Source of the DNA: Daphnia carinata
Lineage: Eukaryota
NCBI RefSeq assembly: GCF_022539665.2
Contig: NC_081333.1
Coordinates: 1 to 64,000, forward strand
Length of the DNA stretch: 64,000 nucleotides
Direction: 5' to 3'
Below the pieces are notes generated by a model that saw only the letters and a list, made by a program, of their open reading frames with translations, searched no databases and was not told the DNA's origin. The first letter of the stretch is position 1. Every line of letters begins with the position of its first letter. A program made the translations under genes and the position numbers. Below, one piece after another: positions 11,264 through 55,725 of the stretch.

Positions 11264-11287
11264 TACCTTCAACCAGTTATACTCAAG

Positions 11288-15582: not shown

Positions 15583-15796
15583 TTTCTTTTTTATTATTTT
15601 AGATGGTGGTAGAATCCATATAACAGAAGTACAACTATATATGCTATCACCATCACTGAAGCAGTATCAATTCAATTCAAAGAATCAAGAAGAAGATCTA
15701 CTCACCTCACTATTATTTGCATTATTTCTTTCTTCTCTGTTGTCTTTTTCAACTTTGAGTTTGTGTTCTTGTGTTCTCTTCCATTCTTACATGTCT

Positions 15797-15805
15797 GAGA
15801 GGGAG
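15797..15805 (+). promoter_or_regulatory. Polypurine tract GAGAGGGAG
   Basis: Directly precedes the TG of the 3' LTR. Confidence 0.9.
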
Positions 15806-16158
15806 TGTTAAGAATATCAGCCACGTCACAACGCATCGCCCACCAGATGGCACTGAATGCAATAGAGAAGCTGCCGTTCTCTACACAGCCTTCATGGATG
15901 CTGTTAAACACCTCCCCTGTCTACTTAATCATCGTCTGCTGCGCCGTCATCACGCTCTGTCTGACGGCTGCCCCTTTATCTCTCAAGTGATTTATTTCTC
16001 TAGAACTAACGCTGAGTTCACTTTCTCAATACTCACATGGTAAATATCAAATACTTCATATTGTATGTACATTGATGCAGATATGAGATTGTTAGATATT
16101 TCATGTACCTGTGCAAAGAATACAGAAGCCTCGCTCTCATATCCTTGTGTATCTAACA
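15806..16158 (+). repeat. Copia 3' LTR (353 bp)
   Basis: Direct repeat of 10903-11249, followed by the ACTGT TSD. Confidence 0.97.
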
Positions 16159-26870: not shown

Positions 26871-26970
26871 NNNNNNNNNNNNNNNNNNNNNNNNNNNNNN
26901 NNNNNNNNNNNNNNNNNNNNNNNNNNNNNNNNNNNNNNNNNNNNNNNNNNNNNNNNNNNNNNNNNNNNNN
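26871..26970. other. Assembly gap (100 N)
   Basis: Run of 100 N. Confidence 1.
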
Positions 26971-32827: not shown

Positions 32828-34782
32828 TTCCCGACGCTGTGATGTTCGTTTTCTGTGTTGTCAGAATAAGTTTTCCTATGTTAAGCATCCGTATTTTTAA
32901 AGAAAGTGATGATGGTCCGAATCGCAGAGGAATCGTTTAATTTTCGTTTTTCTTCGTATTTCCCGAAAGAAACTAACAAATCCAATGAGAAACGAACAGC
33001 ACACAGGGTGTTGTCGAAGAGGAACACGTAGTCAAGATTCTGAGAAAAAATTTGAAATTCTAGACAATGCTCTGCAGCAATGTGTTTGTTGTAAGATTTA
33101 TTTTCTATATTGGCATAATAGAATAATTAGAAAATCATGATTTTTTTTCTTCCTTTTAGGTTTTTGACTTCGTTTAATGTTGTGGCTGAATGGACAATGA
33201 GAGATTGAATCAACAACATAACAAGCGGGCAGCTCATGGTCAAACTCATTTGGCATAAAGGTATCATTTAATTGGGAAATATTTGTTCACGTCAATACAA
33301 GTATTTGTATAGGTTTTCTTCATAGGGGCTTTAGCCACCAAACATTTTTTCTTCTTTATGGTTTGTTAGATAAGGGTGGAGGCGGCTTTAACAATTTAGA
33401 TCTAGCAGCTATTAGACTGGTGGTGTTGGCCCAGTGAATCTTATTGTCTTCAAGCTGGGTGAAAAAACAATGAGTATTTAGTTATCAAAATTACCTGAGG
33501 CATGTGCAAATATTCAAATAATTCTTTGTTGAAGTTCAGTTAGTTTCGTGCAACATCCTCACAAAAATGCAACAAGACTTAACAAATAGAGCATATAGAC
33601 GCAGTGTCGAACTGTACCAGTGAGTACCAGAGTAATGTGACAAACATTCATGATGGTGATTAATCTTCACACAGCTAACATTTAGTTGGTACTATTATGT
33701 GTTTTATAAATTTAGTTATAATTTTATTCAGCTTGTTATTTAGTGGAATATAATTTATTTCAGTTTTTCTGATGCAGTTTGGAAGCCACTTGGAGTAAGC
33801 CTTTCGTCAGTTACTCACAAAAAAAGATTGGCAAATCTAGTCCTGGAGATCACTTTTTTTGTCAAGGAAATACTGGAAATTGGTATTGAAAAGGTCATTA
33901 ACAGACAATTTTTGTATTTTATCAGTTTATTCCTATATTTAACATGGTTGTTTAGAAATGCTATTGGAGTCTAAAAGCACTTGACAAAAAACCTTTTGAT
34001 TGTTCTCGTATTAGATGGAAATTACTTGTGCAATGGTACCAATCCATAAATGAAAACAATCTATTAGACAAAAATTTATGATTGACTGATCATAATCTGT
34101 GTAAATTTATATATAATTCTAGGTATTCAACCATGGAATGACCAGCTCTCTGCAGAGTGAAAATCTACTTGACAGCGTTAAACCTGTTAAGTACCTTTTA
34201 CAAAAAATTCTGAGAATTGCAAAAGTTATGTGAACAAATTTTGTATTGGAGAAATTCTAGGTAAAATGAAAGCCATTTCACAATACAGCTGAATAGCTAT
34301 GAAACACAACCAATCCAGGAACTGAGTGTGTTGAACAACCAAACTTATCTTGGAGAGCTGCAGAAAGAGAATGGAACATTACCCTGCCAAACACCTGCTT
34401 CCAAATGGTAGTTTTAATTATTTGTTTTTACAAGGTATATTCAGTCAATTCTTCGAAAACTGTTCTTTTTCGCAGGTCAATGGCAGGGGTCTTATTCACT
34501 GTCTGATGAATTTAAGTTTAAACAAGATATTGCTTTTGATTACTTCTGCTGGTAACTTTTATATTCCTAGTTAGGATATGGCTTTCCTCAAAAAGGGTTT
34601 AAACTAACATCTAACTTTTTTTTCTTCTTCTCAAAAGAGCTGCTGAGGAAGTTAGCTAGAGTGACGTAGATGTGTCATCACAGCAGAATAACTGTAAAAA
34701 GCAAGTTCTTCAGCAAAATGAGTGCCTTGCAGTATTTACCACTATTGAACGATTTTGAGCTGATGATACCTGGTAAACCTGC

Positions 34783-35936
34783 AATTTGTTTTTATGTAGA
34801 CTTCATGGTTTTTGAATTATTTCAAAAATAAAAGTAGGTACGATAGAAATTTAAGGCCCGAAAAAACAATAAGCCCGACTTTTAACTAAAAAATTATTAT
34901 CAATAAAAATAGATAACTATATATGATTTAGATGCTAAATTGAACAACAATCCCGAATATGAAATTAGTTTTTATGTAGATTTTATGGTTTTTGAGTTAT
35001 TTTAAATATAAAAGTAGGTACGATAGAAATTCAAGGCCCGACAAAACATTAAACCCGACTTTTAACTAAAAAATTAATATCAATAAAACTGGATAACTAT
35101 AAATGATTTAGATGCTAAATTTAACAAGAATCACGAATAAATTAGTTTTTATGTAGGCCTAATGGTTTGTGAGTTATTTTAAATTTAAAAGTAGGTACGA
35201 TAGAAATTTAAGGCCCGAAAAACAATAAGCCCAACTTCTAACTAAAAAATTATTATCAATAAAACTAGATAACTATGTACGATTTAGATGCTAAATTTAA
35301 CAAGAATCACGAATATCAAATTAGTTTTTATGTAGACTTCATGGTTTTTGAGTTATTTTAAATATAAAAATAAGTACGATAGAAATTTAAGGCCCGACAA
35401 AACAATAAACCTGATTTTTAACTAAAAAATTAATATCAATAAAACTAGATAACTATAAATGATTTAGATGCTAAATTTAACAAGAATCACGAATATGAAA
35501 TTACTATTTATGTAGGCCTAATGGTTTGTGAGTTATTTTAAATTTAAAAGTAGGTACGATAGAAATTTAAGGCCCGAAAAACAATAAGCCCAACTTTTAA
35601 CTAAAAAATTATTATCAATAAAACTAGATAACTATATACGATTTAGATGCTAAATTTAACAAGAATCACGAATATCAAATTAGTTTTTATGTAGACTTCA
35701 TGGTTTTTGAGTTATTTTAAATATAAAAGTAAGTACGATAGAAATTTAAGGCCCGACAAAACAATAAACCCGATTTTTAACTAAAAAATTATTATCAATA
35801 AAACTAGATAACTACATATGATTTACATGCTAAATTTAACAACAATCACGAAAATGAAATTAGTTTCTATGTAGACTTTATGGTTTTTGAGTTATTTTAA
35901 ATATAAAAGTAGGTATGATAGAAATTTAAGGCCCGA
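34783..35936. repeat. 180-bp tandem repeat block (~6.4 copies), duplicate of 31671-32827
   Basis: Same monomers in the same variant order. Confidence 0.95.
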
Positions 35937-37482
35937 TTCCCGACGCTGTGATGTTCGTTTTCTGTGTTGTCAGAATAAGTTTTCCTATGTTAAGCATCCG
36001 TATTTTTAAAGAAAGTGATGATGGTCCGAATCGCAGAGGAATCGTTTAATTTTCGTTTTTCTTCGTATTTCCCGAAAGAAACTAACAAATCCAATGAGAA
36101 ACGAACAGCACACAGGGTGTTGTCGAAGAGGAACACGTAGTCAAGATTCTGAGAAAAAATTTGAAATTCTAGACAATGCTCTGCAGCAATGTGTTTGTTG
36201 TAAGATTTATTTTCTATATTGGCATAATAGAATAATTAGAAAATCATGATTTTTTTTTCTTCCTTTTAGGTTTTTGACTTCGTTTAATGTTGTGGCTGAA
36301 TGGACAATGAGAGATTGAATCAACAACATAACAAGCGGGCAGCTCATGGTCAAACTCATTTGGCATAAAGGTATCATTTAATTGGGAAATATTTGTTCAC
36401 GTCAATACAAGTATTTGTATAGGTTTTCTTCATAGGGGCTTTAGCCACCAAACATTTTTTCTTCTTTATGGTTTGTTAGATAAGGGTGGAGGCGGCTTTA
36501 ACAATTTAGATCTAGCAGCTATTAGACTGGTGGTGTTGGCCCAGTGAATCTTATTGTCTTCAAGCTGGGTGAAAAAACAATGAGTATTTAGTTATCAAAA
36601 TTACCTGAGGCATGTGCAAATATTCAAATAATTCTTTGTTGAAGTTCAGTTAGTTTCGTGCAACATCCTCACAAAAATGCAACAAGACTTAACAAATAGA
36701 GCATATAGACACAGTGTCGAACTGTACCAGTGAGTACCAGAGTAATGTGACAAACATTCATGATGGTGATTAATCTTCACACAGCTAACATTTAGTTGGT
36801 ACTATTATGTGTTTTATAAATTTAGTTATAATTTTATTCAGCTTGTTATTTAGTGGAATATAATTTATTTCAGTTTTTCTGATGCAGTTTGGAAGCCACT
36901 TGGAGGAAACCTTTCATCAGTTACCAATAAAAATAGATTGGCAAATCTAACAAATGGTATGCAATCGGTAACAGTTTTATTACAGTTAGAATTACTTTTT
37001 CCTAACATACATTTCAAACTCATTTTTAACACAGTTAACATATATAGTCGCATCACATGAGGGTGGGTGAGGTTTTGTTGCCCATTGCTGAAGTTGTGGG
37101 CAGTTCTTGGTCCATGTCGTAAAGGTATGTGCAGCTAGCAATCGCCCAGTATCTTCCTTTCCCATTTTCCTTTTTGGTCTTACAGTTTGACACTTTCGGC
37201 GTACATACCCCGAGGGAAAAGTGTCTTGTATTAAGTTGAGTTTAAAGCGTGGATGAAGGACCGATTTTTGTAGCGTCATCCAAAGCTATTAGCAATATGC
37301 TGTTGGGTGTCAGAATCATTTACATTATTGCCCAAACTTTGATTGTCTTCCAAAATCGTCTGCTCGATGATACTTTATTCGTGAAAATGCTTAAGCATCT
37401 TTCAGTGTTTCTCCTGTTGAAGCCGAGGCGAATAGCTGAATCACACCTATCATTTCATATTTTTTATGCCTTATCATTGTAT

Positions 37483-40400
37483 AGAAACTATGTCGGTAAC
37501 CCTTTGTTCTGTGTTCTTGTGTTTTGTTGAAACTTTCCTATGTCATTTTCAAGTGAGATTTTTATTTGTTTTTAGGTAGCTGTACTGATGTGTAAAGAAT
37601 GGTGGTTGCAGGTCATCAGAGCCATTCTTTTATACAATACTGTTCCTTTTTTATTGCTTTAATTTTTTCATTTTAGCCACTGAATGTAGCTGGAACAGAA
37701 CATGTTGGAATTTTAGCATCAGGACATCTGGCTGGTTGGACAATTAAACATCCCTCTGTGTGGACATAAACGTGTCAAGTTTTTATCTGTAGATTATTTC
37801 TGGGATAATAACTTTGTCACCAACACCGTGACTTTGAAAACTAGCAGTTGAACAGTCTTTCAATTCGAAACAAAAAGGAGTCATGGTAATTTTATGTTTT
37901 GTATACATTTCTGTATAAACTATCATTTATCTAGATTACTCAAGTGGCATGACACTATATGGCTGGTATTGGAATAGATACTGTTGGTTGTATGCAGAAT
38001 ATCTTACTGAGAAGGGGATCTACTATTGAAGGAGTATCGTGTTTTACTACAGGCTGACCAGAAGCACAAACACATTGATTGAAAATTATTATCAATTTTA
38101 AGAATTGGTAAGTGAAATAATAGTAATTATACGAAGTTGTAATAATATTCTAATGATAAGCAATTACTATGGAATTATTGTTGGGAAAAGGTGACAAAAA
38201 ATAATAATTTATGTTATAAAAATTAACAGGGTAAAAACCATTTTCTATGGTATTTGTGGTAAAGTATATTATGTATTGCTATGAATACTTGTTATCCGAA
38301 CAAATTGAAAATAATTGTACAAATTTTTATCCACCTATGTTGAAGCTTTGTTAGCTATAGGTCCCTATATCGTATCTATATATGGTCCCTATAGCTTACC
38401 AAATTGAAAATAATTGTCCTACTGTTTATCTAACTTTGTCGAAGCTTTGTAATCCATAGGTCTCTTACTTTGCTTATCTTCCAGTGATCAGGACAATGTG
38501 GGTTAGTATAACATTAAACAATTTAAAATTTATTCAAAGTCAGAACAGTTGAAATTTCAAGTAGATTGACATGTGCAGGGAATACTTGTTAATGTTTTGC
38601 AGGTACAAGAATTACACATACATATTACAACTGTATTGATAAGATTTTCGATGCTTAATAATTTCTATTTACATTCAGAAGTAACAGGTTATTAATATGA
38701 CTTAATGTACATGACTACATGATGAATACCAGCAGTGATGAAACCTAAGAGTCGCAACGAACATATAGTATGGTACTATAAATGTTTTAAATAATTAGTG
38801 ATACTTAACTGTCAATATCTCATTTGATGCAGTTTGAAAGACGGTCCGAGTAAACACTACAGCATCTACTCACACAAGGACTGCAAAATCGTCGTAAATT
38901 CAACTTAGCTGACAGGCGAATCGATCGACGACGGTGTTATAGTTGAGGTACAGTTGTGGAGGTAAGACTATGTACGAAAGTGAATATTTTGCGTCTTCTA
39001 CCGCCTTAAATACTCGATGACACGTGTCACATTATTGCTTTCCCGGAAGTAGAGTGTAGGGTAGAGAGCCCTAATTCTGAAGGTCGATAGGTTGAAGGGC
39101 AAATCTTTATTTCCAGGTGAGCCCGAGGTTATAGCCATTCCCCATCGATTGACCCTAGGTTACTTTTACTTTTTTTTTTGTTTCCAAGTGCGTAAAACAG
39201 ATGAAGAACCTCGGGCATTCACTAAAAGGAGGGGGCGAGAAAAAAAGAATCTAGAAGCTCAGTAGCTCGTTCACCTGCACGCGATGCACTAGTGTAGATT
39301 TGTTGCTGGCACTCCTCGTCTAGTGATACTTAGAACTTTCGCACGTGTACCCAGTTTTCGCAATTTGTAGATTCATCAATTACGCACGGCATCAGCACCT
39401 GGTTTTGTTTAGTTGGGTAGTACAATAAGTCTAGATGAAATAGATCATCATAGATTAAGTTAAGGATAAGTAGGTCTAAACTGAAGTTAACAGTAAGGGT
39501 ACTTAAGCGTATAACTTAAGTAAGGCGTAAGCGTAGTCCACCTCAGTTCGTTACCTTTGCACAACACTATCTTAGCCATTTTCTTTCACTGTTCTATGCA
39601 ATTGTGTACCGTAGTCGTCGTTCGTAAACCATTTTTCCACGAACATCGTACATGTCGACTTTTTCACACAATTTTCACATGAACCGCCAATCCAAACAAC
39701 CTCCTGATCATTAACTAACGATTAATAATCGATTTCTTTTTCCAGGAAATTTTTATCAAATGTAACTGTAATTTGTGTATCTGATCCTGTTAGAATTAAG
39801 ATAACACTGATTGTTGATCAAATATTCAAAAATTTTGTTTGTTTTTCTTTTTCTTTTGTACAATCAGGAGGGTAATCTTTCGGGGCTGAAGAGGACACTG
39901 GACAATGAGGATCGCCGCCGCAGCCACTCTAATATAGCCCAGGATCCTGAGGTGTTTAGTTAAAAATTCAGTATGTAACCATTTATTTTATTTTTTTTAT
40001 AAATAGATCTGGAAGGCCACATCTCCACCGAAGAGAACCGTTGGACAACGAGGGTTATCGGCAGTATCTTCTCCCAAAATTCCAATTCCAAGGTATTTAA
40101 AATATTTAAGTGCCTTACCATGTTCTATGTATTAATCTGTGTATAGGAGGGCTGGCAACACTACCGAGAAGGATTACTCGACGTCGGGGATCGCCGCCGA
40201 AGTCGCCAAGGATTGACAGGTATTACTTAAATAATTGTGATAAGTGTTTAATCGTGTTTTTTTTGTATTTAGGATGGTCTACATCACTAACGAGGTGGGC
40301 CACTAGACAACGAGGTTCGGTGTCGGAACCACCATGAATCGTCGCCCAAAATTGTGAAGTATTTAATCGAAAGCCTTAGGTTGAGAACTATGATTTTATT

Positions 40401-42001
40401 TTGTTTTTATGTATTTAGGAACGCTTCACCGCCATCGAAGAGGATGCTGGACATCGAGGATCGCCCCTAGAGTAAGAAGGTCGTCGCAATGGATGTTTCA
40501 GGTATGTTTTACACGTTGAAGTGTCTAACCATGTTTTATTTTATGTATTTAGGATGGTCCACATCTCCACCGAAGACGGTCGGCGAGGTTCGCCGACGGA
40601 GCCACCAGGATGGAGGCCCAAAATTGTCAAGTATATTGTTTAAAATTTTACCATTTTTTCACCATTAATTGATTGTTTTTTATGTGTATAGGAGGGCGTC
40701 ATCATCGCCGAAGAGGACCACTGGACAACGCGGTTCGCCGTCGGATTTACCAGGATCATCGCCCTAAATTTTCAAGTATTTAATTTAAAGTTTTAAGTTT
40801 TGCACTACTATTTTATTTAGTTTTTATGTATTTAGGAGGGCTTCACCACCATCGAAGAAGACCGTTTGGACTATGACGGTCACTGCCAAGATCTTAACTC
40901 AATATTGCAAGGTATTTGAAATTTTTAAGTGGCTTATCATGTTCTATGTATTTATCTGTGCCTAGGAGGGTTGGCAATACCACTGAGGAAGATTAGTGGA
41001 CATCGGGGATCGCCGCCGAAGTCGCCAAGGATTACCAGGTATTGCTTAATTAATTTAAAGGGTTTAATCGTGTTTTTTCTAATGTATTTAGAATGGTCCA
41101 CATCACCACTGAAGAGGGCCATTGGACAAAGAGGTATGCCATCGGAGCCACCAGAATTGTGGAGTATTCTATTGAACGTTTTAATTTCACGCTATGATTT
41201 TATTCTGTTTTTATGTACTTAGAAGGCCCCACCACCATCGAAGAGGATGCGGAAGGAACGAAGATCACCACTGGAGCAGCGAGATCGTCGCCATGGATGT
41301 TTCAGGTATTTGTTTTTCATGTGTAAATGTCTAACCATATTTTTTTAATGTATTTAGAAGGGTTCCGTCATCGCCGAAGAGGACCATTGGACGTCGTAGA
41401 TCGTCGTTGGAACAACTGGAATCGCTGCCTATCCTTGAGATTCACGCCCATTAGGTCGACGGAAAAACGATGGTACGGTTGAGTATTGCCTAATTGGCAT
41501 TCGCCTACTTTATACCGTATTATTATTTGTGTATTTTCTAATGTGTTCCCCTTATCCTTTATTCCTTACCGTTAATTTCCCTTAAGCATTACGGCTTATT
41601 CTTTTAATTTTCATTGATCACGCAATTCACTACACCTGTACCCTACGGTTCATTCACGGTTTGTTTGCTTTTTTGCACCGGGTTGGGATTAGTGTATTAG
41701 GTGATGTAGTCCAGCTTACATTGGTTTCGTGCTTCAAGTATTTAGTTGGTGCAGGTTTACTAACACTAACTGCTTCTAAAACAAATAGAACAAAATTATA
41801 AATTTATTTTATCTCTGCATACTACTTTTGAGTTGTCTAGTGGTTTGAATGATACATGAATACAAAAATAATTAATCGCGTGCAATCGGGTTGCTAACCC
41901 TGATTTGATAACCTGATAAAAACGTGATGGGGCAGTAACCCTTCTAACCTGTCCCACAGACGAGAATGAACAACCCGATAAACAAGAAACCGGTTCAAGC
42001 G
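37483..42001 (+). repeat. Left outer arm of a diverged inverted duplication (partner ~49080-53427)
   Basis: Reverse-complement matches: 37480-37700 vs 53230-53430; 38550-38880 vs 52360-52690; 38895-39870 vs 50990-52055; 41900-42001 vs 49080-49190. Confidence 0.9.
39869..41455 (+). other. Repetitive multi-exon gene or pseudogene: ~12 units of GC-rich exon plus T-rich intron (~135-bp period), Arg/Ser/Pro/Gly-rich product
   Basis: Recurrent TATTTAG|GA acceptors (40273, 40419, 40553, 40692, 40835, 40966, 41091, 41223, 41357) and GTATT donors. Exons share CCATCGAAGAGG..CTGGACAACGAGG.TCGCCG. Confidence 0.65.
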
Positions 42002-42654
42002 ATTAAACGGAAATTATGTCATTGTCTATATTTAATAATCATCTCTTTAGCACTAGTAGGTAAGGAAAATTTAATTTGCATTTTGTAATTTTTTTGCTAG
42101 TGTTTGACTGAGTGAACTTGCAGTTGTATAAAGTTATTCAAGATAACTGAAATGGTAGCCCATAAATCAGAAGAATTTTATCTGACATCTTTCTTGCGTG
42201 AACCTGTTAAGAAAAAAACCTTGTTATATCAAAGGGCACCCAATGAAGAAATTGGCTTCATTAATGAATCAAATAGTTAACATTTGCCATTTGTATGTTA
42301 GTGTTAAAATTTGACTGCATTTTCTTTTCTTCAGACTCATTGATTCTAACAAACAGCCTGGTTGCAAACTTTTACCCATTTTGTTGCCATGAATGTATCT
42401 CTGATCCAGTCTTCAACACCCACAAATGCCAAGGTACACAGATATTTCTAAGCTGAGACTGTTAATCTGAAAAAAACAACTTGCAAACCAGCTTGTTCCC
42501 TTTATAAAAAACTTGCTTTAGTCAGGTAAACTTATTTGGATTGCAAGCAATTCAAGTAAATCATTAATTATCTTTAGATTCAAGTGTTATATTGCCTTCT
42601 ATTGGTTCCCTTTGTGGGAAACATGTGTTGTGTGTGAGTAAATGCAACCCTAAC

Positions 42655-43225
42655 AGTCTTGGAGATCACTTTTTTTTGTCAAGGAAATACAGGAAATTGG
42701 TATTGAAAAGGTCATTAACAGAAAGTTTTTGTATTTTAGCAGTTTATTCCTACATTTAACATCGTTGTTTAGAAATGCCATGGAATCAAAAAGCACTTGG
42801 CAAACAACAGTTTGATTGTTCTCGTACCTGTATTAGATGGAAATTACTTGTGCAATGGTACCAACCCATTCATGAAAACAATGTATTAGACAAAAATTTA
42901 TGATTGACTGGTCATAATCTGTGTAAATTTAATATATAATTCTTACAATTCAAGGTATTCAACCATGGAATGTTGACCTCTTTTCATTGAGCTTATCTTG
43001 GAGAGCTGCAGAAAAAGAATGGAACATTACCCTGCCAAACACCTGCTTCCTAATGGTAGTTTTAATTATTTGTTGTCACAAGATATATTCAGTCAATTCT
43101 TCGTAAACTGTTCTTTCTCACAGGTCAATGGCAGGGGGGGTCTTATTCACTGTCTGAAGAATTTAAGTTTAAACAAGATATTGCTTTTGATTACTTCTGC
43201 TGGTAACTTTTATATTGCTAGTTAA
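42655..43225 (+). repeat. Diverged copy of part of the 3.1-kb unit
   Basis: Matches ~30730-31465 with an internal deletion; ORF 42998-43225 is near-identical to 31241-31465. Confidence 0.9.
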
Positions 43226-44554
43226 GATGTGGCTTATATTATGAAATTTTTCAATTGTATTGATAAGATTTTTTATGCTTAATAATTTCTATTTACATTC
43301 AGAGTAGCAGGTCAGTAATGTGCATTAACATACATGATTTCAGGATGAATACCAGCAATAATGAAACCTAGCAGACACAGTGAACGTACAGCATGGTACT
43401 GTAAATTTTTAAAATAATAAGTGGTACTTAACAATTTTCAATTCCTCATTTGATGCAGTTTGAAAGGCAGCCAGAGTAAACACTTCAGCACCTACTCACA
43501 CATGGACTGGTAAATAATTGTTCCTTAAAGTAATGGAATACTATTGGTAACAGTTTGATTTAATTAAGAATTAGTTTGCTAACATAGCTTTAGAACTAAT
43601 TAAATCGAAGTTGAGATATCCTCTTATTTTCTACAATTAAAGAAGATAATGAAGCTAGTTAGCATAAATTCATCTTACCTGATAGGCGAATCGATCGACG
43701 ATGGTGTTATAGTTGTGGTATATCTGTAGAGTTAAGACGTAAGAATTAAGAGTTAAGAATATTATTACCATAAATTCATTCACCATTAATTATTTTGTTT
43801 TTCATTTGTTTAGGAGGGCGCCATCATCGCCAAAGAGGGGCTACTGGACAACGTGGTTCACCGTCGGATCCACCAGGATTATCACCCAAAATTGTTAAGT
43901 ATTTAATCGAAAGTTGTAAGTTTTACTCTTGGCTTTTGAATTATGATTGTATTTGTTTTTATGTATTTAGGAGGGCCTTACCACTATCGAAGAGGGTGCT
44001 GGGTATCGATGATCGTCGTTGGAAAAACAAGATCGTCGGTATGGATGTTTCAGGTGATAAATCTGGTGATGGTTCAGACCTTTTAGTTGTGAATAGTAAA
44101 ATGTATAAGTTGACATTTAGATAGGAGTCTGTTACTATACATGGGTTTACATTAATCATAAAATGCGTTATAAATTTTTTTATATCAAGTAAAGAAACAT
44201 AGTAATTAACTGAAATGTAATGTGGGTTTTTTATTACAAAGGATGTGATAAATTTATTATTATTAAATAAATTATTATAAATTGAATAACGATCGTTCCA
44301 AATTCTTACTACACAAGAAAATAACATTGCACTTAAAAATATTAAAATTAACGAGTGCTATTTCGTTATTCATATTTGCATCATTGTACACATGATGTGA
44401 TTTCTTTATTTTGGGAGTCGATCCTGCGGCCTTTAGCGTTCCATCCCGATACTCTACACATGAGTCATCTTCGACATCTAAAATTTTGACGTATCTATAA
44501 GCGTACACCGTTATCCTAAGTTAAATACGAGCACAGAAAGAGCTGCTATTTTAT

Positions 44555-44625
44555 CCATCAATGGCTCAGTGGTAGAGTACTGACTTCGTATGTCAAAGGT
44601 CCTTGGTTCGACTCCGAGGATAAGC
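44555..44625 (+). pseudogene. tRNA-like module (Thr-like CGT anticodon position), acceptor stem unpaired
   Basis: A box TGGCTCAGTGG, D arm, CTGAC-TTCGTAT-GTCAA, and T arm CTTGG-TTCGACT-CCGAG. Confidence 0.75.
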
Positions 44626-44699
44626 GTGGTGTAAATTAATGTGCAGAAAAGTCTTATATTATTTGAAATACAATATTCATATAACTATCATTACAATCT

Positions 44700-44770
44700 C
44701 CACCAACTTGGAGTTGAACGCTCATCGCTTCAGTTGCAACACTGCTCCTCTACCACTGAGCTACCATTGA
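44700..44770 (-). pseudogene. tRNA-like module
   Basis: Minus strand reads TAGCTCAGTGGTAGAG...GTTCAACTCC (A and B boxes at tRNA spacing). Confidence 0.65.
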
Positions 44771-45259
44771 CACATTACATCTCAATGACTATTCCAAGCC
44801 ACTAAATTAACTACCTCCAAACTAGCATACGTAAAATGGCCCTAAAAATCGAAATGATGTTAAAATGTAAAGTACTTGCGTCTGAATTCTTAGAGCTGTG
44901 GTTCAAATCCTAGACAAACCAAAAAGAATAATGCAATTCGGAATCAATGGTTCGATTCAATGGTAGCAGTTGCCCTTACTCTAGTGTGAGATATGTGATT
45001 CAACTCCCACAGCAACAACCTGAACGGTAAATGAACTTTAGAGGAAGATCAAGGTGGAACATAACTGAAAGGTACGGTAACCTTGATGGTAAATGACCTT
45101 CGAGATCTAAAAAAGTTTAATGGTAAAGTAAGTAACCTTCAGAGGAAAAGTAAAGGACGAACGTAGACGCTGAAGGTTAGGTGTTTGCCCTTGAAAGTTT
45201 TGAAGGTCGAATATTTGACCTTGAAAATTTTGAAGGTCGAATATTCGACCTTGAGATAT

Positions 45260-45547
45260 GGGATCCGGGATCCGGGATGTGGGATATGGGATCCGGGATA
45301 TGGGATATGGGATATGGGATATGGGATATGGGATATGGGATATGGGATATGGGATATGGGATATGGGATATGGGATATGGGATATGGGATATGGGATATG
45401 GGATATGGGATATGGGATATGGGATATGGGATATGGGATATGGGATATGGGATATGGGATATGGGATATGGGATATGGGATATGGGATATGGGATATGGG
45501 ATATGGGATATGGGATATAGGATATGGAATTCGGGATTTAGGATCCC
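45260..45547 (+). repeat. (GGGATAT)n heptamer tract: 32 perfect units at 45295-45518 with degenerate edges
   Basis: Direct reading of the sequence. Confidence 0.99.
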
Positions 45548-45816
45548 ACATCTCAAAAAAATTTAAGTTAAACTCTCACGTTGGAGGTCATCTGTTAGGG
45601 TTATAATTTTGTTGATAGACATTTGGACTTGACCTTCGTCATGGTTACATTACCTTTGGCTTAATCTTGGCTTTTACCTTCGCCGAAGGTTATTTGCCGG
45701 TACGATACGGTCATTTACTGTGGGACTTGAACCACATACGTCGTGTAACTCACTTTGAGTAGGGCAGCAGCTGCCATTGAATGGTATTATTTAATTCGGT
45801 TTTCAATTAGTTACAT

Positions 45817-45886
45817 TGGTTGGTCTGGGATTTGAACCACAGTACAATGTATTCAAACGCAAGCACTTTACCGTTGTGCCATGACT
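45817..45886 (-). pseudogene. tRNA-like module (mirror of ~44850-44920)
   Basis: Minus strand reads TGGCACAACGGTAAAGTGC...GGTTCAAATCCC. Confidence 0.55.
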
Positions 45887-45978
45887 TGCTTGTAATCAAC
45901 ATTTCGATTTTTAGTGCCATTTTACATATGCTACCTTGGCGATAGTTAATTTAGTGTATTGGAGGAGTAATAATAATG

Positions 45979-46050
45979 TCAACGGTAGCTCAATGGTAGA
46001 GGAGCAGCATTGTAACTGAAAGGTTGAGAGTTCAACTCCCAGTAGGTTAG
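45979..46050 (+). pseudogene. tRNA-like module (mirror of 44700-44770)
   Basis: TAGCTCAATGGTAGAG...GAGTTCAACTCCC. Confidence 0.65.
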
Positions 46051-46153
46051 GTTTTACACTGAAGTACGTAAACTTGAAAATGATTTTTTATAATTTTCTA
46101 TCCAGGGGAATTCAACAGTTTCACATGGTACAAATTACGAATTATTAACATCA

Positions 46154-46224
46154 TACCTACCTCGGACTCGAACCAAGGACCTTTGAAATACCAAGTCAGT
46201 ACTCTACCACTGAGCCATTGATGG
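46154..46224 (-). pseudogene. tRNA-like module (mirror of 44555-44625)
   Basis: Minus strand reads TGGCTCAGTGGTAGAGTACTGACTTGGTATTTCAAAGGTCCTTGGTTCGAGTCCGAG. Confidence 0.75.
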
Positions 46225-46899
46225 TTATTCATCATAAAAAAACATTCGTGCAGCTCCATTTGTGTGCTCGTATTTCACTTAGGTTAACACTGTATGCTAA
46301 TCAATACGTCAAATTTGTAAATGTCGATGGTGGCACATATGTAGAGTATCGGCATGGGAAGCTATAGGCCGTAGGATCGAGTCCGAAAACCAAAAATTTG
46401 ACGCCATGTATGACATGATGTAAATGTAAATAACGTAATAGCATTGTAAATGGTTTTGTAAATATTGATACGTGCAGTAATATTTTTTGACATAATGCAG
46501 CAATTAGTTATTTATTTGCAGTTTCCAGATAAATTTATCACAACCATTGTTATAATAACCACGTTACATTATTTCAATTAAATATTATGTATAAATTACT
46601 GAACTTCTTACAGTATATTTTTATGACGAATTTTATGGTTAAAATAAACCCATCTATCTCCACTTTCTGAATAGCGGCTTATTAGGAAAAGCTTATTATT
46701 GCTTTGTTTTTTTACGTATTATTTTTATTCCGCGGGGTATCATATATTTTCCGTGGGCTGGTGTATTAAGTAAACCCAATCGGAAAGGAATATTAAAGGA
46801 ATATGAATACAACCTATCACGTAAATCAAAATAAGAAAACTAAACCAGTATACTTTTCCCCAGACTTACAACACTATAATCCCTTATTGAATTATCAAT

Positions 46900-49020
46900 C
46901 CGCATTTTTTGAAACATACTTCATTGCCTAGCCTTTAACTACGCACTTGTAATGTTTTCCCAACGCTCTATCTTATAGGCTATTGGTGTTAGATCATCTC
47001 TCCTTCACTTACCATTTCTTCAAATTCATGGCAATATATCTCATTCTCCCACATTCCAATGCCCAGTTCATTCAATGACTGTTATTCTGGTCTATCTGTA
47101 AAAAAGCATTAATCACATCAATACATAACATTTCCAACAATATTTGGGCAATAAATGTACGTCTGCTGATATGTTGAACCTATTACACGAAGCTAAATTC
47201 CAGATGTGCTGCAATCTAATTTGTATAGTTAAGCCAGGTTTACCAAGTGTTAATCCGCCTCATTCGTGTTATCGAATACCATCGCGATTCTTTAACTACA
47301 TTCAGAATAGCAACATAGTACCATGAATAAAACCTATTTTTAAAAAAAAAGGTTTAAAAAATCGTGTCCGTAATTTTTGTTTTTTACTGAGAGGTTGAGG
47401 TTGAGTAGGTCAGTCCTTCTGCACATTAAATTGGATTGAAATTCTTCTGATTCCTCGACAAAATAGTCAAGGTGGCCGGCCATCCATTGATCGTCACAAG
47501 GCTGTAGTGTTTGGCCACGATGCGGACATTATATACAACAAGACGTATTCGGTAACATTCCACTTTTTCTCGCCATCCTCATTAACTTATGTAAAAAGAA
47601 CTTACTTGTACATTTTTCTCTATTATAGATGTGATTTACTGCACTGACCTATGTTAATGATATCAGTTGCCGGGATGGGGGTCTCTCCCTTCGCCATACT
47701 AGTTGGTACTATTGACAGCGTGTCAGCGAAACATCACTTCGACAACAACCAACAATTGCAGAAACTCTTTCTCCTGGATCACTGTTGTGTTGTACATGGC
47801 TTGATTATGTTAACAAATGTAGAGATATAATACCTGTTCTTGTCAACATCTATCAGGAATCTACACAACGATGAATAATTCACCAACATTTCCTCTCCAC
47901 CTTCCCACGCTTAATAAGACGGATGGAACAATGTTAAAGTATTCCTACATGAAAATATTCAATTTAAGACTGAGCACATCTTTCTCTAAAAACAAATCTG
48001 ACACTTATCTTTTTCAAACTGATCTGAGTGCAGATGCAGAAGAAACAATCTCATTCGTTTCAAGATAAGCTCCACCTGTTCACTGGTATTAGAACATAAG
48101 AATTGCATGACAGAATTATTTGGCATTAAAACCAAAATTAATAAGTCTTACATTTTCTAGCTTTTCCATAGAATCAATGGTCTTGAACAGAAGTTCATGG
48201 AGAATGTCTGCAGCTTCAGCAACTTTACCCTATTTCTCTTGTATTATGACAACAAAATATGTATCAGCCTCGATCCACTCCAACATAATGCGAAAATAAA
48301 ATATTTTATGTAAAAAAGAATAACAAAAACAAAGACCAAATTCATGTGCACCTTTCTATCAGGAACAGTTCTGAGTGTCAAATCCAGTAATCACAGATTA
48401 GTACATTCGTATCCACAACTCATGACAGGGTGGAGGTCTCTCCCATTCGCCATACTAGTTGGTACTATTAGACCCGAAGCTTTTAGCTTGCTCCATCATT
48501 AGTTCTACCTTAGGGTATTTTCTTGATAAGGTGCCACTTCTTAATTCCGAAACTGATCTGCACAATCGGTTCCAAGATGCACCTTGCTGAAATGGTATCT
48601 ACCTGTAAGCAAAGCATAGGATCAAGTAAGATACAAAAAGATACAGAAATTCAACTCACAGGTCTTGTATGTTTTTCAAAATCAAGGAGAATTTCTATGA
48701 CTTCGTTTAAATTCTCTTCTGTGGTCAAGGCTTTACAGGTTGGTGTCCTGTCGTCGCCATGTTTAACTATAATCCCCTTTAATTTTAACGATGCGACGCT
48801 CGTGAGTGGTCTTTGAAGCTGTCATATCTTTGCGTTCGCTACACGTCTTCAAGATTCTGAAGTTACCAAAGCTAGATTAAATGCCAAATAAAACTTCGCC
48901 AAAATGAAATTATCAAATATATATACCGGTATTTCTGGTTTGCTTACAAACTTTCTGCGCATACAACACTGAGCTTCATGTGCACTTGTGCAGACATGTA
49001 AGACAGCGTTGCAAAGCATC
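46900..49020 (-). pseudogene. Degenerate multi-exon gene of unknown family
   Basis: Exon-like blocks bounded by minus-strand splice signals, with in-frame stops; an internal duplicate (AATAGTACCAACTAGTATGGCGAA on minus) at ~47690-47713 and ~48446-48469. Confidence 0.35.
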
Positions 49021-49599
49021 GAATTGGTAAAAGGAAACGGGAAGGTTAAGGAAGAAAGACTAGGGTCAGATTCACAGCCCCGCTTCGATCGGGTCGGGTT
49101 TTGTTAAGCGGGTTGTTCATTTCCGATTATGGGGCAGGTTAAACGGGTTATTACCCCATCATGTTTTTACCGGGTTGTCAATCATCGTACGCTAACCGAT
49201 CACAAGCAATTGTTTTAGTATTCCTATTTTTCAAGTCAACATTCAATATTCAAAATACAACAGTAAGTTATTTTGTTTTACTTTTCTTTTAAAAGCAGTT
49301 AGTGTTTTGCAAACCTGCAGCAAACAAATACTTGACTTGTAACCTATGTAAGTAGGGGCTACATTACCTAAACCACTAATCCCAACCCGGTGCATTAAGT
49401 CGAATACAAGCCGTGAACGATCCGTGCAGTGCAGGTGTAGTGAAATTGTGTGCTCAGTGAAAGATAAAATCATAAGCAATAATGCTGTGAGGGAAAATAA
49501 TGGGAGGGAAAAAGGAACGAAGCATCTATCAATCAAACAAATCACAATACGAAATAAAGTAAGTGAAAGCCAATTTGGCAATACTCAACCGTACCATCT

Positions 49600-50998
49600 T
49601 CATTTCCATCGTCCTAATGGGCGTGAATCTCGGGGCTGGGCGACGACCCTCATTCCTCGAACGACGATCCACGGCGTCTAGTGGTCCTCTTCGGTGGTGG
49701 CGAGGCCCTCCTATATACATAAAAATAAACTATGGTTAAACACTAAATAAAAAAAAATATATACCTGAATATCCGTGGCGACGATCTCAGTCCTCTTCGG
49801 CCTCCAGCGTCCTCTTCGATGGTGGTAGGGCCCTCCTAAATACATAAAAACAAAGTAAGATCATAGTGTAACACTTAAAATTTACAAATAAATACTTGAC
49901 AATTTTGGGCGACGATCATGGTGACTCCGAAGGCGTCCTACATCCTTTTCAATGGTGGCGAAGCCCTTCTAAAAACATAAAAACAAAATAAAATCATAGT
50001 CATACGTAAAACTTAGAACTTTCAATTAAATACTTTATAATTTTGGGCGAAAATTATGATGCCTCCGACGACGAACCTCGTTGTCCAGTGGTCCTCCTTA
50101 GCGATGATGGAACCCTCTTAGATACAAAAAAAAAACATGGTTAGACAATTAAACGTGTAAAACATATACCTGAAACATCTATGACGACGATGTTGGTGCT
50201 CCAGCATCCTCTTCGGCGTCCAGCATCCTTTTCGGCGTCCAGCATCCTTTTCGGCGTCCAGCATACTCTTCGGCGTCCAGCATACTCTTCGGCGTCCAGC
50301 ATACTCTTCGGCAGTGGTGAGGCCCTCTTAAATAAAAAAAAAAATGATTAAGCACTTAAACGTTTTTTAAAAAATACCTCAATACCCGAGCCGACACTCT
50401 CGTTCCTCCAGCGGCGATCCTCGATGTCACGCATCCTCTTCGATGGTGATGTAGCCCTCCTAAATTCATAAAAACAAAATAAAACCATAGTTCAAAACTT
50501 AAAACTTTTAATGAAATACTTGACAATATTGGGTGACGATCAAGGTGGCTCCGACGGCGAACCTCGTTGTCCGTTGGTTTTCTTCGATGATGTGGACCAC
50601 CCTAAAAACATAGAGAAAAACGATTAGACATTTAAAATTGTTAAAGCAATATCTGGTGACCCTTGGCGACTTCGGCGGCGATTCCCGACGTCCAGTAATC
50701 CCTCCTCGGTAGTGTTGCAAGACCTCCTAGGCACAGATAAATACATAGAACATGGTAAAACACTTAAAATTGTTGAATACCTTGCGATATTGGGCTAGGA
50801 TTCTGGCGGTGACCTTCGTTGCCCAGCGGTCCCCCTTCGGTGGTGATGTGGCCCTCCTAGATATATAAGATTTAAAACAAATACATAGTTAGATACTAAA
50901 TTTTGTATTATATACCTCGGAATCCTGGGCGATATTCCAGCGGCTGCGGGGCTATCCTCGTTGCCCAGTGTCCTCTTCGGCCCCAGAGATTGCACTCC
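49600..50998 (-). other. Second copy of the exon/intron-repeat gene
   Basis: Repeated CCTCCTAAATAC/ATACC(T) splice signals on the minus strand; the first exon (..KRTLGNEDSP) is homologous to the exon at 39869. Confidence 0.65.
50201..50312. repeat. 19-bp minisatellite, ~6 copies
   Basis: CCAGCATCCTCTTCGGCGT in tandem, with minor variants. Confidence 0.95.
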
Positions 50999-53900
50999 TG
51001 TATGTAAGGAAGGGACAAAAAATAAAAAAAAATAAAATTTTTTTTTTTAATATTTGAACAGCACCATGTTTCATCTTAATTCTAACAGGCATCAAGTACA
51101 CAAATTACAATTACATTGGATAACAAGTTCCTGAAAAAAGAAATTGTTTATTAATAGATAAAGGGTCAGGAGGTTGTTTGGATTGGGTATTGCTTGTTCA
51201 TGTGTAAACTGTGTGAATTCGAAACATACAAATGTTCGTACAAAAATGATTAGCAAACGACTACGGTAAATAGTTACATAAAACAGTGGAAGAAAATGGC
51301 TGAGATAGTGTTGTGCATAAATAACGAAGTGAGGTGGACTACGCTTTACGCCTTACTTAAAGTAGCCTTAATTTTAACTTCAGATTTACTTATCCTTAAA
51401 CTTAACTTTAGATTTACCTATCCTTAACTTAATTGTAGATTTACTTATCCTAAACTTAATCTACGTTTATCTATTTCATCTAGACTTATCGTACTCCCCA
51501 TCTAAAACAAAACCAGTGCAGAGGCTAAACCAGGTGCTGATGCAGTGCGTTATTAGTGCGTAATCGATGAATCTAAAATTTGCGAGAGCTGAGAACACTT
51601 GCTAAAGTTCTAAGAATAATTAGACGTGGATTGTAAGCAACAAATCTACACTAGTGCACCGCGTGCAGGTGAAAGAGCTACTGAGCTGCTGGATTCTTTT
51701 TTTCTTCCTCTCCCCCCTCTTTTTTTGTGAATGCCCGAGGTTCTTCATCTGTTTTAGGCACTTGGAAACAAACAAAAAATCAAAGGAACGTAGGGTCTAT
51801 TGATGAGGAATGGCTATAATCTTGGGCTCACCTGGAAACAAAAATTTGCCCTTCAACCTGTCGACCTTCAGAATTAGGTCCCTCTACCCTACACTCTACT
51901 TCCGGGAAAGCAATAATGTGGCACGTGTCTGCGAGTATTTAAGGCGTCGTCTAGACGCTAGACAATCACAGTCGTCCAAAGTCTTGCCTCTACAGATGTA
52001 CCACAACTATAACACCGTCGTCGATCGATTCGCCTGTCAGGTAAGTTGAATTTATGTTAATTGTCTTCACGTTTTCTTTAATTGTAGAAAGTATGAGAGT
52101 AACAATTACGAATAAATTAGTTCTAAATCTATGTTAGCCACCTATGGTATACAAATGTACCACAACTATAATACCATCGTCGATCGTTTCGCTTGTCAGG
52201 GAAGTTGAATTTATGTTAACATGCTTTGTTGTCTTCTTTAATTGTAGAAAGAAAGAAAATATCAACTTCCATTAAGTTAGCTCTAAATCTATGTTAGCAA
52301 ACTAATTTTGCATGAATTCAAACTGTTACCAATAGTACTCTGTTTCTTTAGGAAATAACGATTGTTCAGTCCTTTTGCGGGTAGGTGCTAAAGTGTTTAC
52401 TCTGGCTCCCTTTCAAACTGCATAAAATGAGGAATTGAAAATGTATCACTAATTATTAAAAAATTTATAGCATCATACTGTATTCATTATATCTGCTAGG
52501 GTTCATCATTACTGTTATTCATCCCGAAATCATGTACGTTAGTACACACTACTGACCTGCTACTCCTGAATGTAAATAGAAGTTATTATTAAGCATTGAC
52601 AATCTTGCCAATCTTTTCTTATTTTAATCACTTGCAAAACACTATTAAAAAATATCCTCTGCACATGTGAATATACTTGATAATTTGAATGCCAAAAAGC
52701 CAAAACCAGTAACCACTGAGCATTCAAATGTGTTAGTACATCTGATCAGTAACAACACGATCAGAAGGCCTAGAAACATAAAATATAACACAATATAGAA
52801 AATAAAACATTACCCAGAAAACTAAACAATCTGTGTTAACAAACACTAACATTGCAATAATTCATATTAAATATTTATTAAGTGTCAAATTCATAATTTA
52901 TTTAATGTAATTTAAAAGTACAAAAATGGGAAAATTTTCACCTACATTTTGATTAATTCTTGTTAGAAGTCTGGGCAGCTATAATGCCATGTAGAATACA
53001 ATCATTCAATGTTCATTGTTGCTAGTTAAAAATATTATACTCAGCCGAATTATTCTGAGCATTGTTATCGCTGAAAAACTGCTGCAAAAATGTGTTTGTA
53101 ATTCTGGTCAGCCTGTAATAAAACATAACAATATACTTAAAATATAACAATTAAATATAGTAATGAATATATAAAAAATAAAACTAGATATAGCAAGCCA
53201 AATTTCTTATAATTACCATTCCAATATTTCATATTCCAGCTACATTCAGCAGCTAAAAAGACAATTTATAATAAAAATGGAACAGGACTGTATAATAGAA
53301 TAACTCTCCTGCCCTGTAACCACCATTCTTTACACATCACTACAACTATCTAAAAGCAAAAAAAAATCTCACTTGAAAATGACATGGAGAAGTTTTAACA
53401 AAACAATAGGGTTACCTATATAGTTTCGTCACCGTCATCGCTCGCTCCTAAAATTGTCTTCGCCTCTACATTTCGATCAAATCCTGTTGGAAGACTGGGC
53501 ATCCATAATAACATGGAGAAAACTATAGATTTACTGACCACATCTTGATGTTCATTGCTTCTAGTTAAGAATTTGAAACAAACCTGGGCTTAAGTTCCTT
53601 TTTTCTCCACTTTTCTTCTCTTGGCTTAGCTTGTTTTCAGGATTCTCATTCAACGGTAGACGTTTGCTTTTGAATGCTGCAATCAAATTATTACAATAAA
53701 GATTTTCTTGGGCTACCATTGTTTGAAACACCAATCCCTTTCAGCAAATACCCAGCTTCACCATCCTTCTCCTAATATGACATTTCAGATTCAGTTATAA
53801 TCACAAGACAGTCAATTTATATTAACATATTAAATTTAGATAAATTTCCAAACTAACCTCAGGCCGAGAATTTTCCCAACAATGTATTGTTCATAGTCCA

Positions 53901-55725
53901 CGTCACTGAGCGGAAATGAAGCCTGATTTGACACTTTTTTCCTTCATTATTTCAGGCATGACAAAAATCACTTGGATTAGGAAGGCTACGGCGGACGGAT
54001 CCACATTTTAAAGCTCACCTTGCTTATACTGGATGTTTATTCAGAGAAGAAAACTGCCCTTTTGAATGCCCTGCTTCATTTTTGTCTGACAAGAGATGGA
54101 AATAAACAGCATTTCTCAGACAGGCCAATAAACGGAAATTCCTTGTAGGAATCTACGAATTAAGTTATACGTTAACCCTAACCTATGTTAAGTTACCGGA
54201 TATTTTTTTTTTCTTACCTCTTGACTAAAAATTTTGCGCCCGAATGAAGAAAGACCTTTTCTTTCTTGTCAGTTAAGCGCCAGAAAATTCCTTATGCCTT
54301 GTTGTCATACTTTTCCAAATAAGCCGTAATGCGACATGAAAGCAGTAGTCGGCCCTAAACACCTGACTGGCTGTGATTCGGGGCTCACCACCCTCCCCCA
54401 TGCCTGGAATGGGCCAATCACGGGATGACAGGGAGACATTTTCTACAACGGGGCGGTGGCGGGGCTCAGTTCCTGGGTCACACCGATAACCCTGTCGTCA
54501 TTTTAGAAGATGGCGGATTCAATGAAAGTGACAATTGTTGAGTGAGAATTTACAATTTGACTAAAATTACTAATTCTTAAGACTTCACTTAGGTTGATGC
54601 CTCAGTAATTAACTAAATTCCTGAATTTGGATGTATATATTGCCAATGATATAATCTGCATTCTTGAAAATATTTGCCAACACAGTTTTCTGCTGTCTAG
54701 TAAATGTTAATGAAAACTTAAATGTTTGAATCTCCTGGGTGACAACCATACTCAACTTATTCATGTGCCAAGTAAAAATTACCTTTTCTGCTTTTGAATA
54801 ATCTAACTTCTACAAAGAAAGGATTGATGTTAATTAAGATTTTACTAGGAGATGCATGGTGTCAATGCTTGGAAGTAACTCACCCTAAATTGATCGTAGC
54901 CTACAGACTAAGAATGGTTGACACTTCCCGAAATGCAAATCAAGACAGCAGGAAATAGGGTTTCACATGAAAATGACTCAAAATAATGGTAGCTGGTAGT
55001 TTTAGGCAAGAGCAAAATTCGTATTTGCAGCAAATGGTAAGCAATTGTCTTGTATCCAATGATACAACACTTTTATTAAGATTTTTGTGTGCAACGTTAA
55101 ACATAGTTCTTTTATTTTACTTACCAACACTTTCAATGCTGTTGGATTGCAGTTTGTCTTTGTAACTTTTGTTACTGTTCATTGAATTGAGGCTGGTAAA
55201 ATCATGTGTCAGGAATACATAAGAAATAAAAATGCTTAACATCGAACGTTTGCCAAGTTAATGATTTAATTCTACCTATTCTTCCATTCCGCTTATTCAC
55301 TATCTACAATGCTGCAGGATCTCTCTACTTCTGGATACATAGCAAACTGATAAATTTTGACGTTGTAAACGACAGAATTCCTCACCAGAGGGATTAGGTA
55401 GCAACCCTCACCAGAGGGATTAGTTGGCAACCCTCAAGGACCTTGTGCTGTGCTATTGTGGTTTAACGTGCCACATACTTTAGTGCTGGTAGATGAAGTT
55501 CTGCATGACATAATGGAACGCTTCCGTGCTACGAGGGAAAATGAGTTTCGGAATACATCCTTGTTTATAAAGAAAACCTCTAGTCAAACTAAACAGCAAC
55601 AAAGGGTTGTTAATAATTAATAACGAATTACTTGACGAAAAAAAACCATAAAGAAAAAAACGAATCATCACTGAATACAAGTGAGAACATTAGAAATTGA
55701 AGAGTAACGGGAAAAGAATTGAATA

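Follow-up and report, generated by a model that had tools for sequence, protein, structure and literature searches.

In the first 64,000 nucleotides (nt) of the Daphnia carinata contig NC_081333.1, the whole stretch that we analysed and refer to as the window, an inverted structure of about 16 kb surrounds a tract of GGGATAT heptamers. A cluster of old copies of one composite, gene-carrying unit whose end is distinctive describes it better than a single palindrome does. The unit is roughly 10 kb long and is likely an undescribed gene-carrying mobile element, a local duplication being nearly as likely; that the palindrome marks where two members of a family of non-autonomous DNA elements with cargo meet tail to tail is a proposition that we hold midway between acceptance and rejection. 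In its favour are several lineages of copies, a derivative that lost internal sequence but not its end, a terminal architecture like that of elements, dead pieces of housekeeping genes, uneven conservation along the arms (88% versus 79–80%) and a satellite- and transposon-rich setting. The structural, copy and motif results all refer to the 64-kb window.

Diverged copies mirrored about a heptamer tract

Self-alignment recovers outer and inner arms as reverse-complement homologues at the positions given in Table 1, as a sequence-only reading of this DNA had claimed, and places the heptamer tract between the mirrored arms as their axis. Over 44105 to about 45090 and 46682 to about 45640, the inner arms align with 732 of 940 ungapped columns identical and a score of 769, compared with −14 ± 12 in 30 shuffles. 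Eight aligned arm blocks hold 738 substitutions versus 117 gap openings, and 49% of the substitutions are transitions (P 1e-19 against one third); the differences therefore reflect evolutionary divergence and not read error. Arm identity ranges from 79 to 88%, in keeping with the earlier view that the arms are diverged and are not an assembly fold-back. It is distributed unevenly, with 88% in a conserved 5′ block versus 79–80% in the micro-exons, the 3′ tail and the inner arm (P about 1e-4).

A different intervening block had been assigned to each side of the palindrome. This stands for the right side, which holds a broken RPN5 gene; the left block turns out to consist mostly of another copy of the outer arm, one with deletions, whose segments at 43144–43744 and 43779–44055 align with the right arm as well as with the outer arm on the left. 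The right copy also extends beyond 53427 into a broken HP1-like gene. We call the right-hand copy R, the two left-hand copies L1 and L2, and a further fragment to their left L0.

R is the fuller copy. Read toward the tract it comprises the broken HP1-like gene, a non-coding upstream block, the conserved 5′ block, a micro-exon gene, the broken RPN5 gene, 0.7 kb of further sequence and the terminal zone; its upstream block is duplicated internally at 51991–52304. L1 is cut at its left end within the HP1-like gene, stops just short of the expected RPN5 start and contains neither the RPN5 remnant nor the terminal zone. L2 passes from the upstream block through two micro-exons directly into the terminal zone, and may be an internal-deletion derivative that retained the end. 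The stretch between L1 and L2, 42000–42654, was assigned to neither copy. In the shared upstream block L1, L2 and R are pairwise 80–85% identical, with L0 more distant from each of them (Table 1). A three-way alignment of this block gives 35 private sites in L1, 29 in L2 and 28 in R, a near-star pattern, and by this measure the three copies are about equally diverged. The conserved 5′ block likely represents the micro-exon gene's promoter plus its first exon.

At 29300–36949 a 3.1-kb unit with 180-bp repeats has recently been duplicated in tandem (97.8% identity). Part of the 3.1-kb unit is 88–94% identical to 42655–43235 in L2, and the unit is therefore a rearranged relative of the L/R family. 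A cluster of AACCCG/CGGGTT-like motifs lies at 41880–42000 and 49083–49200, exactly where the homology between L1 and R stops; it may be a second, internal element end. Adjoining the cut end of L1, at 37040–37480 on the minus strand, is a broken Cys-containing frame. By eye it resembled the tail of a piggyBac transposase, a candidate that we rejected on finding no Pfam match and only weak rubredoxin matches in the PDB.

Table 1. Positions in the window of the copies, their parts and the self-alignment pairs
Feature	Position	Strand	Remarks
L0, upstream-block fragment	36850–37036	+	fourth, more distant copy; 70–73% identical to L1, L2 and R
Further short L0-type pieces	30560–30728 and 33672–33836		in the 3.1-kb tandem duplication
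L1, partial copy	37483–41999	+	upstream block, conserved 5′ block, micro-exon gene
L2, second partial copy	42654–45266	+	two internal deletions; upstream block 43144–43744, two micro-exons 43779–44055, entire terminal zone
R, outer arm	49083–53428	−	upstream block, conserved 5′ block, micro-exon gene, 3′ tail
Conserved 5′ block	38895–39450	+	non-coding; 488/554 aligned bases identical to R (88%), highest of all blocks
Micro-exon array, L1	39868–41476	+	exon-like units of about 70–115 nt, G+C-rich, with A+T-rich GT..AG spacers
Broken HP1-like gene, R	53190–53945	−	last intron and exon also in L1 (37483–37735)
Broken RPN5/PSMD12 gene (26S proteasome lid subunit)	47380–48830	−	stops, frameshifts, intron-like gaps; R only
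Five tRNA-like A/B-box modules, L2	44403–44476, 44553–44624, 44703–44772, 44848–44921, 44942–45018	−, +, −, +, +	
Same five modules mirrored, R	46322–46395, 46158–46226, 45977–46047, 45817–45890, 45713–45795	+, −, +, −, −	
AAGGT/ACCTT motif cluster, L2	45020–45252	+	ends in palindromic 30-bp repeats
Terminal 16-mer, L2	45251–45266	+	TTGAGATATGGGATCC, in phase with the tract
Terminal 16-mer, R	45541–45556	−	15/16 identical to the L2 16-mer
Heptamer tract	45253–45546	+	42 units, 33 exact GGGATAT, one orientation
Reverse-complement pair	37520–37733 / 53405–53196		self-alignment
Reverse-complement pair	38635–38892 / 52612–52358		self-alignment
Reverse-complement pair	38895–40547 / 52054–50329		self-alignment
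Reverse-complement pair	41151–41985 / 49908–49101		self-alignment
Reverse-complement pair, inner arms	44137–44976 / 46657–45761		self-alignment

The terminal zone

L2 and R share the end sequence TTGAGATRTGGGATCC, a 16-mer that ends in GGATCC and bounds the tract. Near-palindromic GGGATCC/AGGATCC units stand at both tract ends, and the inverted match across the tract reaches 28 nt at 79%. Outside the tract the window contains only three isolated exact heptamers. The short motifs AAGGT and ACCTT, clustered in the terminal zone of both copies, are similarly concentrated: 200-bp windows with at least four of them occur only at 44.9–45.8 kb, the mean over the 64-kb window being 0.27, and in L2 the cluster is expanded into a long hairpin (z −7.2).

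Further inward, each copy carries five tRNA-like modules with A and B boxes, ordered minus, plus, minus, plus, plus when read toward the tract; no such module was found elsewhere in the window. ARAGORN calls one of the ten modules and Rfam two (both module 2), without an acceptor stem. The T-stem is paired at 5/5 positions only in module 2 (two of ten modules) and at 1–3/5 in the other eight, a T4 run lies within 40 nt of one module in ten, and single modules fold no better than shuffles (z −0.85 to 0.65). The promoter-box letters are retained. Leave-one-out profiles (four pairs) recover module 2 (E 4e-8 and 2e-7), module 3 (1e-5 and 0.013), module 4 (0.03 and 0.08) and module 1 (0.005 and 1.1), with module 5 not recovered, a test that cannot tell shared ancestry from a general resemblance to tRNA boxes. 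The full cloverleaf and T-run terminator of a functional tRNA gene cluster are not what the modules show. Because box letters are kept, most T-stems are incompletely paired, T-runs are rare and gaps between the copies are few, the modules would seem, as far as sequence can tell, to be DNA sites of the RNA polymerase III (Pol III) promoter type, and not tRNA genes.

Gene remnants inside the unit

The HP1-like gene is represented by two consecutive open reading frames (ORFs) with top PDB matches to CBX5 (E 0.006) and HP1 (E 0.024); Pfam gave no match, nor did a protein search with the 59-amino-acid (aa) HP1-like ORF. A further, putative 5′ exon probably extends to about 54500. A second HP1-like gene, considered in the 29.7–30.7 kb unit, was dropped for want of support at the DNA or protein level.

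RPN5 is the only PDB match in two frames of its remnant (E 0.003 and 0.17), and the matching pieces are collinear along the DNA. Pfam adds PSMD12-CSN4_N at E 5e-4, a value below the curated cut-off and the sole Pfam match under E 0.01. Two other frames gave no RPN5 match, and a read-through frame of 46852–48639 found nothing in a protein search. One ORF of 50 aa had no usable match in the Atlas. A first reading by eye of 46.8–48.8 kb as an Ulp1/C48 protease was dropped, the PDB giving only RPN5 and Pfam only PSMD12-CSN4_N at E < 0.01. A 42-bp stretch occurs twice (93%) within the remnant, at 47673–47713 and 48428–48469. Both the HP1-like and the RPN5 remnants are broken, lie in one unit and have coding pieces separated by intron-like gaps.

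Between them lies the micro-exon gene, whose counterpart in R occupies about 49595–51002 on the minus strand. The core of a micro-exon reads like PLDNEVRRRSHQD, a decayed Arg/His-rich repeat. Across thirteen aligned cores one frame is free of stops and the others contain four and six, with a ratio of nonsynonymous to synonymous differences (pN/pS) of 0.8; coding status is therefore likely and not shown. The predicted product would be an Arg/His-rich repeat, for which we found no relative. The R micro-exon at 50200–50312 is expanded as 5.9 copies of a 19-bp unit. Two other parts of R that look exon-like, 46680–47380 and 54500–55700, matched no family. One of three minus-strand frames of 46680–47420 gave three matches, which look as if matches to unrelated repeat proteins had been summed and were set aside.

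Searches for relatives

The arm motifs had no occurrence in viral and metagenome contigs or in prokaryote genomes, collections that need not include this animal. The heptamer-end pattern occurs in two viral contigs, and 67 BLAST rows to the window all fall in the tract except one of 42 nt (E 0.009). One A+T-rich contig of the viral collection, L002, carries a short (ATATCCC)n tract at 1914–1939; beyond the 42-nt row its flanks have no match to the arms. Six motifs were absent from 12 of the 32 supplementary files of PMC8594854, files other than its D. magna transposable-element library. The doubled heptamer, in three spellings, did not occur in the literature searched, and literature searches turned up no such Daphnia element. 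Rfam over 36.5–64 kb at E up to 1 returned two tRNA matches only, with no U6 or U1 pieces and no hammerhead ribozyme; a hammerhead-core pattern was likewise absent from 36.9–55.8 kb.

Mobile element or local duplication

How would a mobile unit of this kind have produced the locus? It would have acquired pieces of host genes as DNA and been moved by an enzyme encoded elsewhere, with the terminal motifs serving as cis signals and the A/B boxes as DNA sites bound by TFIIIC, a Pol III factor. Two ends could then be joined in opposite orientation through their near-palindromic GGGATCC tail units, which can pair head-on with a match at 6 of 7 bases. Tails meeting in this way would leave an inverted match such as the 28-nt one that spans the tract. 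The sequence-only reading had offered, as one of two options, that family members were joined end to end at a simple repeat. Three about equally diverged copies, a fourth fragment and the shared terminal zone and 16-mer fit this; what keeps it short of settled is that a single-locus inverted duplication, which that reading had itself named as its refutation, could give the same picture, all copies seen in the window lying within about 25 kb and none having been seen at another locus.

A number of other observations weigh against the mobile-element reading. Between 36.9 and 55.7 kb the longest ORF outside the tract has 132 aa, and no transposase, Rep, helicase, recombinase or reverse transcriptase family was significant in 84 and 12 translated pieces; a hAT-like match at E 0.1 lies outside the arms. 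The earlier statement that no transposase is recognisable thus holds for the pieces scanned. Of the termini, target duplications and mobility genes that the same reading proposed to look for, the ends of L2 and R lie at the tract; no far end or target duplication was found in the window, and no mobility gene in the pieces scanned. The far end of R, which was not located, would fall somewhere in 54.5–55.7 kb. R lacks the terminal hairpin (z 0.7), the 15/16 terminal match has P 0.12 given 79% arm identity, and the window has no second copy of the terminal 16-mer or of its palindrome outside the junction. A fold-back duplication, too, would leave exactly such a tract, running in one direction between GGATCC words. 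Finally, the modules have fewer gaps than the remaining inner arm (2/285 positions versus 56/701, P 7e-7) and higher identity at aligned bases (84% versus 76%, P 0.005), which speaks for the mobile-element reading; their boundaries, however, were placed by eye after viewing the alignment, and without module 2 the excess of substitutions is not significant (P 0.09).

These observations lead to the most serious alternative, a local segmental duplication, which we rate as a substantial possibility, somewhat under even. Here a host block made up of an HP1 paralogue, a repeat gene, an RPN5 paralogue and a tRNA-derived cluster would have been folded back by template switching between the GGATCC units at the two tract ends and also duplicated in tandem, staying partly functional for a time before decaying with deletions. 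The copies are all adjacent, the three main ones are about equally old, as from one local burst, and their gene order is collinear; no mobility gene was found in the pieces scanned and no far end in the window, which holds another local tandem duplication, that of 3.1 kb. The single orientation of the tract, its flanking GGATCC words and the 28-nt inverted match that spans it suit a fold-back as well. Uneven conservation fits both explanations, because paralogues can stay functional for a time. Against a duplication, the end of the host block would have to combine a motif cluster and a heptamer tract of 290 bp with five tRNA-like boxes in alternation, features that in our judgement are more typical of element ends; L0 represents a fourth, older lineage; and L2 retains the terminal zone though its interior was lost. 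From one window, capture of the HP1-like and RPN5 pieces and their plain duplication look the same.

The remaining alternatives are far less probable. The other option of the sequence-only reading, one giant foldback transposon with the arms as long terminal inverted repeats and the tract as spacer, accounts for the overall mirror symmetry and is nevertheless largely refuted here: arms identical at insertion should diverge evenly, whereas identity runs from 79% to 88%, the left side consists of two separately diverged copies, RPN5 is one-sided, and the left end is cut in the HP1-like gene with neither outer termini nor a target duplication. We consider it very improbable. Little more can be said for a host chromosome-structure element in which mirrored clusters of TFIIIC boxes would serve as a chromatin boundary where the satellite block ends. 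In fission yeast, inverted repeats and centromeric tRNA clusters act as chromatin boundaries, and the five A/B-box modules of each arm, conserved as boxes and not as folded tRNAs, do lie at a border between satellites and host genes; still, this analogy is a general one for which a literature search gave no support, the arms have not been kept identical and the adjacent genes in the unit are dead, so that such a role would be a long shot. Similarly slight is the probability that two telomere-like ends, belonging to a linear element or a chromosome and with (ATATGGG)n as terminal repeat, fused end to end. The G-rich strand does run 5′ to 3′ away from L2, which is telomere polarity; a fusion should show both repeat orientations where only one is seen, the hammerhead and reverse transcriptase of telomere-attached retroelements were not found in the sequence scanned, and the Daphnia telomere repeat is TTAGG, which differs from the heptamer. 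As to an assembly or long-read fold-back artefact, the N gap and satellites nearby might invite the suspicion; the preponderance of substitutions over gap openings, the share of transitions and the kilobase differences in content leave it a negligible probability.

Should the unit prove to be a mobile element after all, a bolder version of that reading, speculative and in our opinion rather unlikely, is that Daphnia harbours an undescribed class of cargo-carrying DNA elements of about 10 kb. Their end would consist of five Pol III promoter boxes derived from tRNA, inverted AAGGT/ACCTT sites arrayed as for a recombinase, and a heptamer tail built around a palindromic GGATCC core; through this core, copies would integrate into each other's tails in either orientation, and the TFIIIC boxes together with a captured HP1 would aid persistence at heterochromatin borders.

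Setting of the locus

The palindrome is located at the border between a satellite- and transposon-rich block, which includes an assembly gap, and host genes. To its left, 37 kb are occupied by satellites (70, 141 and 180 bp), a copia element and the N gap; in the right 8 kb lie the host genes DUF4470/MYND and a TGS-domain GTPase (DRG). The gene at 55.7–59.1 kb encodes a protein that matches one from Daphnia carinata with 100% identity across 98% of the query, and the window is animal nuclear DNA.

Arrays of the 70-bp satellite run from 4837 to 10902 and from 16163 to 26870, followed by a gap of 100 N (26871–26970) and the 141-bp satellite (26974–29314). The copia element (10902–16160) sits inside the 70-bp satellite, with an open gag-pol frame of 1363 aa and long terminal repeats at 10902–11250 and 15805–16159. 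At the left edge of the window an open frame of 818 aa (3–2459, plus strand) contains a lectin domain of the ricin type and weakly matches baculovirus F, and the next, a 476-aa ankyrin ORF, lies at 2994–4424 (plus strand). The pair looks like the end of an envelope-bearing element truncated by the 70-bp satellite.

Comparison with known systems

We compared the Daphnia unit with known element groups by their published descriptions, of which parts were available. Its behaviour is closest to that of gene-capturing Helitrons and other pack-type DNA elements. Helitron ends are TC...CTRR, and no CTRR follows the L2 hairpin. In the portion of the account consulted, Helitrons capture several host gene fragments, reaching up to 39 kb in maize, carry a 3′ terminator hairpin just before the end and can bypass that terminator (PMC6431247). 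The unit resembles them as a large structure with several broken host gene pieces, a deletion derivative and, in one copy, a hairpin near one end. Unlike Helitrons, it has no RepHel gene in the pieces scanned, a gene that non-autonomous Helitrons would lack anyway; R has no hairpin, and a long heptamer tail with five tRNA-like boxes is not among the Helitron features in the part of the description available (PMC6431247).

Helentrons, HINE and DINE-1 elements are described, in the sections available, with 12–15-bp subterminal inverted repeats at both ends, a 3′ stem-loop and a T-rich boundary (PMC4067079). Non-coding ends with palindromes and a microsatellite, as well as a heterochromatic setting, are common to them and the unit (PMC4067079). 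In contrast to them, no 12–15-bp subterminal inverted-repeat pair was found, the far end of R not having been located, and there is no T-rich boundary; the microsatellite sits at the shared end of two opposed copies, and the unit is about 10 kb long with host genes.

Unlike Terminons, the Daphnia unit shows neither a hammerhead ribozyme nor a reverse transcriptase in the sequence scanned, its cargo retains intron-like gaps, and the heptamer is not the Daphnia telomere repeat. Terminons and Penelope-like elements have, according to the same partial source, a reverse transcriptase gene and a 3′ hammerhead ribozyme followed by reverse-complement telomeric repeats (PMC6431247). Giant size, a simple-repeat end and arrays of neighbouring copies with host genes are shared with Terminons and endonuclease-deficient Penelope-like elements, as portrayed in that portion (PMC6431247).

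Cryptons, from the available text, have a tyrosine recombinase gene and 4–6-bp direct repeats at both termini, and need no long terminal inverted repeats (PMC3212892). The unit, too, would need no long terminal inverted repeats, and its 6-bp GGATCC could be a crossover core; it differs in that the pieces scanned contain no tyrosine recombinase and each copy shows one end only. Dada elements, also from a partial text, encode a DDE transposase, insert in and split U6, U1 or tRNA genes with a 6–7-bp duplication and are present in Daphnia pulex (PMC3706591). As with Dada, the unit would be a DNA element associated with small-RNA-gene sequence, whereas the tRNA-like modules here are unsplit and internal to the unit. 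A tRNA-derived short interspersed element (SINE) has one tRNA-derived head, a short body and a simple-repeat tail; the tail is shared, whereas the unit has five heads in alternating orientation and homology that runs kilobases upstream.

Inverted and tandem segmental duplications leave adjacent collinear copies and a fold-back geometry with microhomology at the spacer, followed by decay. The locus agrees with such an ordinary duplication in its adjacent collinear copies, microhomology fold-back geometry and decay, and departs from it in its element-like terminal architecture and fourth, older lineage. If this locus is the only one to have the unit, the structure is a fold-back duplication that arose at a quasi-palindromic microsatellite and is well preserved, which would be ordinary; a dispersed mobile family would be new. 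Dispersal would also make the unit a concrete route for duplication of host genes such as HP1 and RPN5 in Daphnia, and the five-box cluster a natural test of mobile DNA using TFIIIC sites as its own chromatin barrier. It would then be a large animal element that moves genes and whose end structure matches that of none of the five groups compared, Helitron, Helentron, Terminon, Crypton and Dada.

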